From NCBI RefSeq assembly GCF_003334765.1, contig NZ_QOWT01000033.1: a DNA stretch of 44,004 bases. One strand, written 5' to 3'. Position 1 is the stretch's first letter, and each line of letters opens with the position of its first letter. The notes beneath the pieces are model-generated. The model searched no databases and had not been told where the DNA came from. It was given only the letters and a program-made list of their open reading frames with translations. The stretch is from Escherichia coli. Its GTDB lineage: Bacteria > Pseudomonadota > Gammaproteobacteria > Enterobacterales > Enterobacteriaceae. The position numbers were made by a program, and so were the translations under genes. Below are positions 28,179-28,915 of this stretch, one piece after another.

Positions 28179-28335
28179 TTCCTTTCAAATGAAACGGAGC
28201 TGCCATGCTCCGTTTACTTCGTCATTATTTTTACTTTGTTCCCGCGCAGTTATCAAAAGCAAAAGGAATAGGTAAAAATATTCTTCTCAAATTACAGTTA
28301 GTTATAAGGATTTCCTTAACTGCTTCTCCTCACCA

Positions 28336-28650
28336 TCATGTTATTTTCGCCACATCATAATCCTGGGCTTGCTGAAGAATAATTGAAATGATATTAGTAA
28401 TTCCACTGCCTTTGGTAGAGGAAAGTGCTAAATAATAATCAATTGTTAAATTATTGTGCATTTCACTACTGGAACTGTAATCAGAAAAGATAGACATGCT
28501 TAGCCAATCTCTATTTGATTGAATTGAAAGATGTTTGTTAAGGCATGGATGCAAGCTATAGATTCTGATACGGTCAATAAAAGAGAATTGCTTAACAATT
28601 TTGCAAAATGTATTGGCGAGTAAGAACCGCATTTGGTACTTTCCGGGCAA
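28336..28650 (-). CDS. hypothetical ORF in AT-rich ychE-oppA spacer (possibly non-coding)
   Basis: 104-codon ORF from a TTG with no convincing Shine-Dalgarno; very AT-rich, low-complexity translation. Listed only because it is the one sizeable ORF in a 0.7-kb gap. Confidence 0.15.
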   Translation of the reverse strand: MPGKYQMRFLLANTFCKIVKQFSFIDRIRIYSLHPCLNKHLSIQSNRDWLSMSIFSDYSSSSEMHNNLTIDYYLALSSTKGSGITNIISIILQQAQDYDVAKIT

Positions 28651-28915
28651 CCGCCAGACGATTCTTTATTGGTAATGAGAATAATTAACAATTAAAGAGC
28701 GTCGCGAAAGAATAATGTGTCTCGACAGGGGAGACACAGTACGAATCGACATAAGGTGATCGTCTGAATCACCAGAATAAATAAAGTCGGTGATAGTAAT
28801 ACGTAACGATAAAGTAACCTGACAGCAGAAAGTCTCCGAGCCTGTGCAGGGTCCCAATCCGGGATTACACATGCTGGTTAATACCAGTAATTATAATGAG
28901 GGAGTCCAAAAAACA

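Follow-up and report, generated by a model that had tools for sequence, protein, structure and literature searches.

The ychE-oppA spacer of Escherichia coli as a probable two-promoter control region of oppABCDF, with two leader hairpins around an RNase E site

The spacer between ychE and oppA of Escherichia coli is very probably the control region of oppABCDF, with two promoters and a 512-nt 5' UTR, in which two palindromes are leader hairpins and an open reading frame (ORF) on the minus strand is a chance one. It would comprise the terminator of ychE, AT-rich DNA that is bound by Lrp and H-NS and carries two sigma-70 promoters, and the 512-nt 5' UTR. The oppA control region and leader are already known and well characterised. 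Added here are a base-accurate map of the published oppA features on a wild-type, IS5-free E. coli sequence, and comparative evidence for selection on the hairpins around the RNase E site; the loop of the first hairpin is unexamined in the accessible literature. The complementarity of this conserved loop, GACAGGG, to the R3 seed of GcvB is a detail that may be new and is a weak lead.

The spacer and its promoters

The window (the whole stretch of DNA that was analysed, 44,004 nt) contains the Escherichia coli genes ychT, ychE and oppABCDF, together with adhE on the minus strand. The spacer covers 737 bp (28179-28915), between the end of ychE at 28178 and the oppA ATG at 28916. The GC content of the spacer is approximately 37%, with values of 0.34-0.41 over 28200-28950 compared to 0.48-0.51 in ychE and oppA. 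The long, AT-rich gap described in the sequence-only reading was therefore confirmed in position, length and composition. Of 5426 complete E. coli genomes, 5424 have the spacer, and the full-length matches sampled from these genomes were 98.4-100% identical to it.

The comparative set consisted of 80 loci from Enterobacteriaceae genera, retrieved with the OppA N-terminus as query. The spacer was 630-850 bp long with a GC content of 36-45% in every genus examined. The ychE-spacer-oppA synteny was the same in all loci with ychE on the retrieved DNA. Both the length and the AT-richness of the spacer are ancestral. Conservation across genera was a mosaic. [quoted passage not shown] The DNA between the blocks was variable, most so at 28459-28578.

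The terminator-like hairpin downstream of ychE begins 14 nt past the stop codon. Its RNA fold was -14.9 kcal/mol (z = -4.7) and it would serve as the ychE terminator. An Rfam scan of the region at permissive E-values gave no score near the gathering threshold, and the best matches (MIR399, E = 0.28; C0299, E = 6.3) were at chance level. In published genome-wide work the spacer is listed as an RpoD-holoenzyme SELEX site with H-NS. Two leucine-sensitive Lrp ChIP peaks at the oppA promoter have also been published.

Two oppA transcription starts, P1 (+1) and P2 (+246), were confirmed by primer extension by Carrier, Lalaouna & Masse 2023 (PMC9988348). A third 5' end at +341, the P3 of Igarashi et al. 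1997, is an RNase E processing site and depends on RNase E (PMC9988348). These starts and the cleavage position come from K-12-derived strains, not from the source strain of the window. The published numbering was placed on the window to the base using the oligonucleotide table of Carrier et al. 2023. The T7-oppA oligonucleotide EM4528, used for the transcript from the cleavage site, begins ATCGACATAAGG (ATCGAC), which lies at 28745. With +341 at 28745, P1 +1 is at 28405 and the oppA AUG is therefore at +512, giving the leader its 512 nt. EM5064, the reverse oligonucleotide of the P1 promoter fusion, ends exactly at 28405. The anchor was cross-checked by EM5064, P2, the MicF site, the GcvB R1 duplex and the Hfq site, all of which agreed.

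The -35 and extended -10 of P1 were conserved in all genera. The P2 start (+246) falls at 28650, 8 nt past a conserved extended -10. A further predicted promoter, TTAACA-17-AAGAAT (28685-28713), is listed in Shimada 2014; it was rejected here, since it corresponds to none of the mapped starts and lacks a conserved -10. The conserved block upstream of the P1 -35 (28339..28358) is a candidate regulator or UP site and the block upstream of P2 (28579..28612) is a candidate regulator site. As sites for proteins, the other conserved blocks of the spacer, and not the palindromes, would be good candidates. Judged from the IS5 junctions, the IS5 target of K-12 (CTAA, 28428-31) lies inside the block at 28419..28458.

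Table 1. Coordinates of the features placed in and around the ychE-oppA spacer (positions in the window).
Feature	Position	Strand	Details
ychE terminator-like hairpin, AAACGGAGC / GCTCCGTTT	28192..28215	+	perfect 9-bp stem
Minus-strand ORF, almost certainly a chance frame	28336..28650	-	104 codons, TTG start; frame broken elsewhere, no codon bias
Conserved block TGTTATTTT..CACATCATA upstream of P1 -35	28339..28358		cross-genus conservation 0.74
P1 promoter	28369..28397	+	-35 TTGCTG (28369-74), 17-nt spacer, extended -10 TGaTATTAG (28389-97)
P1 transcription start (+1)	28405	+	derived from +341 = 28745
Highly conserved block, +15..+54	28419..28458		conservation 0.77-0.83; imperfect inverted repeat inside
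Conserved block upstream of P2, AAAAGAGAATTGCTTAACAATTTTGCAAAATGTA	28579..28612		conservation 0.87-0.89
P2 promoter	28613..28650	+	-35 TTGGCG (28613-18), 18-nt spacer, extended -10 TGgTACTTT (28634-42)
Hairpin 1 (+312..+334)	28716..28738	+	8-bp stem, conserved loop GACAGGG (28724-30)
Near-invariant AAUCGACA, RNase E cut (+341) just before A28745	28744..28751	+	published RNase E-dependent 5' end
Predicted helix AUCGAC (28745-50):GUCGGU (28786-91)	28745..28791	+	RNAalifold; also in the single-sequence fold
Hairpin 2 (+351..+369)	28755..28773	+	compensatory changes
MicF pairing site (+372..+393)	28776..28797	+	published mapping, duplex scan
AU-rich stretch, proposed translational enhancer	28798..28820	+	published deletion +399..+413 (PMC9988348)
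Conserved bulged helix CCUGACAG / CUGUgCAGG	28818..28850	+	RNAalifold, compensatory changes
Conserved hairpin GCUGGU-UAAU-ACCAGU upstream of Hfq site	28873..28888	+	RNAalifold; top pair U-A <-> C-G
Hfq (ARN)n site (+484..+492, UAAUUAUAA) and Shine-Dalgarno GAGGGAG (28898-28904)	28888..28904	+	published Hfq footprint
C/A-rich GcvB R1 target across the oppA start codon	28912..28930	+	duplex scan

The hairpins and the rest of the leader

The first inverted repeat is formed by TGTGTCTC (28716-28723) and GAGACACA (28731-28738), a perfect 8-bp stem with a 7-nt loop. The second is formed by GGTGAT (28755-28760) and ATCACC (28768-28773). Both would be transcribed into the 5' UTR, because the starts mapped in K-12, P1 (28405) and P2 (28650), lie upstream of them. 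The hairpins bracket the RNase E site (+341) and lie directly upstream of the MicF site. The RNA fold of hairpin 1 was -12.2 kcal/mol (z = -3.7), with one of 200 shuffles folding as well. Hairpin 2 alone was weak (-7.1 kcal/mol, z = -1.9, nine of 200 shuffles as good). In a context of 281 nt the minimum-energy fold rearranges hairpin 1 and the centroid keeps it.

A hairpin was found at the same place in all 80 loci, just upstream of the nearly invariant AAUCGAC wherever that motif could be anchored. The stems of hairpin 1 differ between genera and species, being GUGUCUC/GAGACAC in E. coli, GCGUCUC/GAGGCGC in E. albertii, CUGCCUC/GAGGCAG in Kosakonia and CGACGUG/ACGUCG in Salmonella. In an alignment of 80 sequences compensatory changes were found in all eight pairs of hairpin 1, with 88-95% of cells paired, and in five of the six pairs of hairpin 2, with 97% of cells paired. 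Thirteen of the 14 pairs had changes on both sides. The covariation score was 0.531 compared to 0.222 in column shuffles, none of 500 shuffles reached 0.531, and the structure slid by 1-3 columns scored at most 0.12. The alignment was made with a covariance model fitted to the structure, so the counts lean towards the structure. RNAalifold on an independent MAFFT alignment gave the same result for hairpin 2 and for part of hairpin 1. The sense-strand RNA folded better than the antisense in 69 of 80 loci for hairpin 1 and in 64 of 80 for hairpin 2. This asymmetry is characteristic of G-U pairing in the transcribed strand.

Both hairpins are thus selected sense-strand RNA structures across Enterobacteriaceae, rather than products of chance. 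The single-stranded AAUCGACA between the stems was invariant or nearly so in 48 aligned sequences and is likewise under selection as RNA. The two palindromes had been proposed, from the sequence alone, as RNA structures in the small RNA-regulated oppA leader. The repeats are present where they were described, the promoters lie upstream, the stems covary and the sense strand folds better, all of which bears the proposal out. It had been reasoned that an oppA start downstream of both palindromes would leave them in promoter-distal spacer. Both mapped starts lie upstream of them, and the sole 5' end between them, +341, arises by RNase E processing.

The AUCGAC:GUCGGU helix is predicted to enclose hairpin 2 and to join the RNase E site to the core of the MicF site. 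Its pairs are almost invariant, with five one-sided changes that all keep pairing and zero compensatory changes; the helix is compatible with the data but unproven. MicF protects +372..+392 and the pairing was supported by compensatory mutants (PMC9988348). In the duplex scan MicF nt 6-26 paired with 28775-28795 at -16.0 kcal/mol, approximately 120-140 nt upstream of the AUG, and the site was almost invariant across genera. The small RNA scan used 22-nt windows, as RNAduplex on the whole UTR gave meaningless full-length duplexes. Downstream of the MicF site, the junction in oligonucleotide EM5095 shows that the published enhancer deletion starts at 28803 and removes approximately 20 nt compared to the 15 nt stated in the paper. 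The bulged helix at 28818..28850 may be equivalent to the polyamine-responsive structure. The Hfq/Shine-Dalgarno region was conserved across genera. The best duplex of the scan was GcvB nt 66-85 with 28912-28930, at -21.7 kcal/mol. GcvB R1 has been published to repress at the oppA translation initiation region.

Taken together, the hairpins and the AUCGAC:GUCGGU helix would hold this segment of the leader in a defined fold. The fold would leave the RNase E site exposed, flanked by two stable stems, and the MicF site partly occluded. It may fix the ends of the processed species, the mRNA with a 171-nt leader in E. coli and the OppX fragments in Salmonella. It may also determine the downstream action of MicF, Hfq and GcvB. 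Since MicF did not affect the +341 processing in the work of Carrier et al. (PMC9988348), a functional tie of the fold to MicF is not established. MicF activates oppA translation only when GcvB and Hfq repress it (PMC9988348).

The loop of hairpin 1 was conserved while its stem varied. RCAGG was found in 70 of 79 loci, and the full GACAGGG in 43. The loop (28724-30) is a perfect complement of GcvB nt 152-158 (CCCUGUC), which overlap the validated R3 seed; the published mutR3 mutant of GcvB replaces nt 154-158. Instead of being purely structural, the loop could dock a trans-acting factor, with the GcvB R3 seed as the most plausible partner; this reading is improbable on present evidence. In its favor are the exact 7-nt match to the seed and the retention of RCAGG despite stem variation. 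The GACAGG to GGCAGG variant would still pair via G-U, and the alternative loop CCACGCAA of Cedecea-type loci is C/A-rich, like R1 targets. However, the match was found post hoc and approximately seven independent 7-nt GcvB complements in the UTR is the chance level. The motif is partly within the stem in Klebsiella and Raoultella, and regulation is lost in gcvB deltaR1, which suggests that R1 is sufficient. The accessible literature does not report a second GcvB site on oppA. The R3-type complementarity is just 7 nt and lies approximately 190 nt upstream of the AUG, whereas R3 targets are usually at the translation initiation region and pair with nt ~154-171.

In its fuller form the proposal is that the loop, RRCAGG, 15-20 nt upstream of the +341 site, is a second GcvB site that lets GcvB-Hfq steer RNase E processing of the P1 and P2 leaders, and this too is given a low probability. 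If true, docking of GcvB at the loop could account for the need for GcvB in the activation of oppA by MicF, and also for the origin of the Salmonella OppX fragments. Such a site would be missed in the published in vitro work because those RNAs start at +341 and are without hairpin 1 (PMC9988348).

Three other candidates for the hairpins were rejected. A CsrA site (CANGGANG) in the loop of hairpin 1 lacks GGA in Salmonella and is a poor motif fit in E. coli. A pseudoknot of the same loop with CCUGU (28841-45) would use the 3' arm of another conserved helix, and CCUGU itself is limited to Escherichia. An 11-bp match of GcvB nt 38-50 with the 3' arm of hairpin 2 was estimated to be at chance level with G-U pairs allowed, and the arm varies between genera.

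The minus-strand ORF and other readings of the palindromes

The minus-strand ORF was present as described in the sequence-only reading, which took it to be probably non-coding. In PGAP annotation it has a form of 98 aa (28336-28632, 'hypothetical protein' WP_001211521.1). It overlaps, in antisense orientation, the P1 promoter and the initial 246 nt of the leader. That it is a real, young, E. coli-specific protein gene (28336-28632/50) is very unlikely. PGAP annotates it in many genomes and the 98-aa form occurs on many contigs. However, PGAP omits it in other genomes with identical sequence. No homologues were found outside E. coli and Shigella among 5.8 billion proteins, no Pfam domain was found in it, and many shortened forms occurred among the E. 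coli and Shigella matches. Stops or frameshifts interrupted the frame in all other species, the nearest (E. albertii and E. whittamii) among them, and its longest open stretch was 63-84 codons in Escherichia relatives. Substitutions among Escherichia lineages were even over the codon positions (94/112/101), with no bias. Conservation within the ORF falls on the P1 and P2 promoters, which it reads in reverse, and its middle third is the least conserved of the spacer. In the K-12 MG1655 reference the ORF is split by IS5. Frame, substitutions and homology search all agree with the earlier judgement, and the ORF is almost certainly a chance open frame in AT-rich non-coding DNA. The inconsistent PGAP 'hypothetical protein' is almost certainly spurious, which is of value for annotation clean-up.

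The palindromes had alternatively been suggested to be regulator binding sites. As DNA operators they would be symmetric sites for a dimeric regulator of oppA, and they are perfect inverted repeats, promoter-proximal, in an AT-rich region bound by Lrp and H-NS. An operator would be expected to have conserved half-sites with dyad symmetry, but across the 80 loci the arms vary, and do so in a compensatory way. The better folding of the sense RNA through G-U pairs (69/80 and 64/80 loci) is a strand asymmetry that is unexpected for a DNA site. The palindromes also lie 66-310 nt downstream of both start sites. The suggestion did not hold up, and its probability is put at close to nil.

Equally implausible is hairpin 1 as a minus-strand intrinsic terminator, of an antisense transcript or of the ORF mRNA: a consensus scan flags the 8-bp stem followed by TTATTCTTTC on the minus strand, but one such match is the shuffle expectation (mean 1.0), the T-rich flank is not conserved beyond Escherichia, the minus-strand RNA folds less well in 69 of 80 loci, and the hairpin is upstream of the ORF start instead of past its stop, with no minus-strand gene reading into it. 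The preferred reading of both palindromes is therefore that of hairpins in the oppA leader RNA.

Comparison with known systems

The oppA 5' UTR of K-12 (Igarashi 1997; PMC9988348) is the same locus, with no difference by eye downstream of the IS5 point. P1, P2, +341, the MicF site, the AU-rich enhancer, the Hfq site and GcvB R1 all map onto the window. In the MG1655 reference an IS5 (insH21) is inserted at +27 of the P1 transcript, within the most conserved block of the leader, whereas the window is without IS5. The last base of the P1 -10 also differs, being TATTAG in the window, like most E. coli, compared to TATTAT in K-12; in K-12-type strains this is a consensus-improving change. On these comparisons the K-12 laboratory reference is atypical at the oppA leader, which matters when K-12 oppA promoter data are extrapolated to other strains. 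The accessible text of Carrier et al. assigns no function to the two hairpins, which are probably drawn in its Mfold figure S11 (PMC9988348).

In Salmonella, OppX is a 5' UTR-derived sponge of MicF (Matera et al. 2022, as summarised in PMC9988348). In E. coli, by contrast, Carrier et al. detected no stable leader fragments, and MicF activates translation rather than being sponged (PMC9988348). A simple match of the OppX isoforms, with reported lengths of 410, 190 and 109 nt, to the P1/P2/RNase E spacings of 350 and 96 nt was considered and rejected, as they do not fit. The Salmonella leader is homologous. The MicF site, AAUCGAC and both hairpins were found in two Salmonella enterica loci (L079 and L081), with AAUCGAC 162 nt before the ATG.

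Sharma et al. reportedly described, in 2007, GcvB-targeted C/A-rich elements in the leaders of ABC transporters. The window resembles such leaders in its start-codon region (28912-28930), which is C/A-rich and gave the best predicted GcvB R1 duplex. This C/A-rich element is distinct from the palindromes and lies approximately 175 nt further downstream. Terminators and REP-type palindromes are likewise G+C-rich stem-loops in intergenic regions. Unlike these, the hairpins of the window have no U-tract on the transcribed plus strand, no gene ends at them, and they are single-copy and lie in a mapped leader. Their position and loop are conserved across genera.

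Differences between K-12 and other E. coli upstream of oppA

The K-12 MG1655 reference carries an IS5 element (insH21, positions 2000-3194 of its locus) in the oppA leader. The element was inserted at CTAA, +24 to +27 of the P1 transcript, in the leader block with the highest conservation. No insertion is present at this site in the window or in most E. coli. Approximately 83 of the 5424 spacer-bearing E. coli genomes gave no single match spanning at least 80% of the spacer. Loss of insH21 has been reported for some K-12 derivatives. The P1 primer-extension design in the 2023 E. 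coli oppA 5' UTR study of Carrier et al. (PMC9988348) implies that their strain did not carry insH21.

The final base of the P1 -10 hexamer also differed. It is G in the window (TATTAG) and in other genera, and T in K-12 (TATTAT), which is nearer consensus. The window 61-mer containing TATTAG was found exactly in 4819 E. coli records and the K-12 61-mer in only 349. P1 strength taken from K-12 measurements may not be representative.

Coordinates of features in and near the ychE-oppA spacer
Feature	Window position	Strand
ychT	27447-27500	
Hairpin after ychE	28192-28215	
WP_001211521.1	28336-28632	minus
Conserved non-coding block	28339-28358	
Final base of P1 -10 hexamer	28397	
Conserved non-coding block	28419-28458	
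IS5 target CTAA	28428-28431	
Conserved non-coding block	28579-28612	
Hairpin 1 loop	28724-28730	
Segment deleted by EM5095	28803-28822	

Conserved elements of the oppA leader

Three non-coding blocks were strongly conserved and are candidates to explain the two ChIP peaks of Lrp or to bind other regulators. The middle block holds an imperfect inverted repeat and TGTTAAATTATTGTG, which we take to resemble an ArcA-type direct repeat.

The conserved loop of hairpin 1, GACAGGG, is perfectly complementary to CCCUGUC within the R3 seed of GcvB (nt 152-158; positions 448-454 of the sequence holding gcvB). Cedecea-type loci have the C/A-rich loop CCACGCAA in its place. The published 'delta399' deletion of the enhancer used oligo EM5095, which takes out approximately 20 nt, GTAACGATAAAGTAACCTGA, and extends into the start of the conserved CCUGACAG helix arm; PMC9988348 gives the deletion as 15 nt, +399 to +413.

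ORFs and the hairpin after ychE

Some RefSeq E. coli genomes have a PGAP call for a hypothetical protein of 98 aa, WP_001211521.1, and other genomes with 100% identical sequence have none. The evidence points to a spurious call. Both PGAP and the K-12 annotation include ychT, a small ORF of 17 codons that is directly upstream of ychE and is preceded by AGGAGG.

Starting 14 nt past the stop codon of ychE is a hairpin with a perfect 9-bp stem (z = -4.7), presumably the terminator of that gene despite the T-run lying approximately 12 nt from the stem.

Comparison with Salmonella OppX

In Salmonella enterica subsp. diarizonae and arizonae (L079 and L081) the RNase E site lies 350 nt from P1 and 96 nt from P2. 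These spacings showed no simple correspondence with the 410, 190 and 109 nt reported for the isoforms of OppX, the Salmonella MicF sponge, as summarised in PMC9988348.
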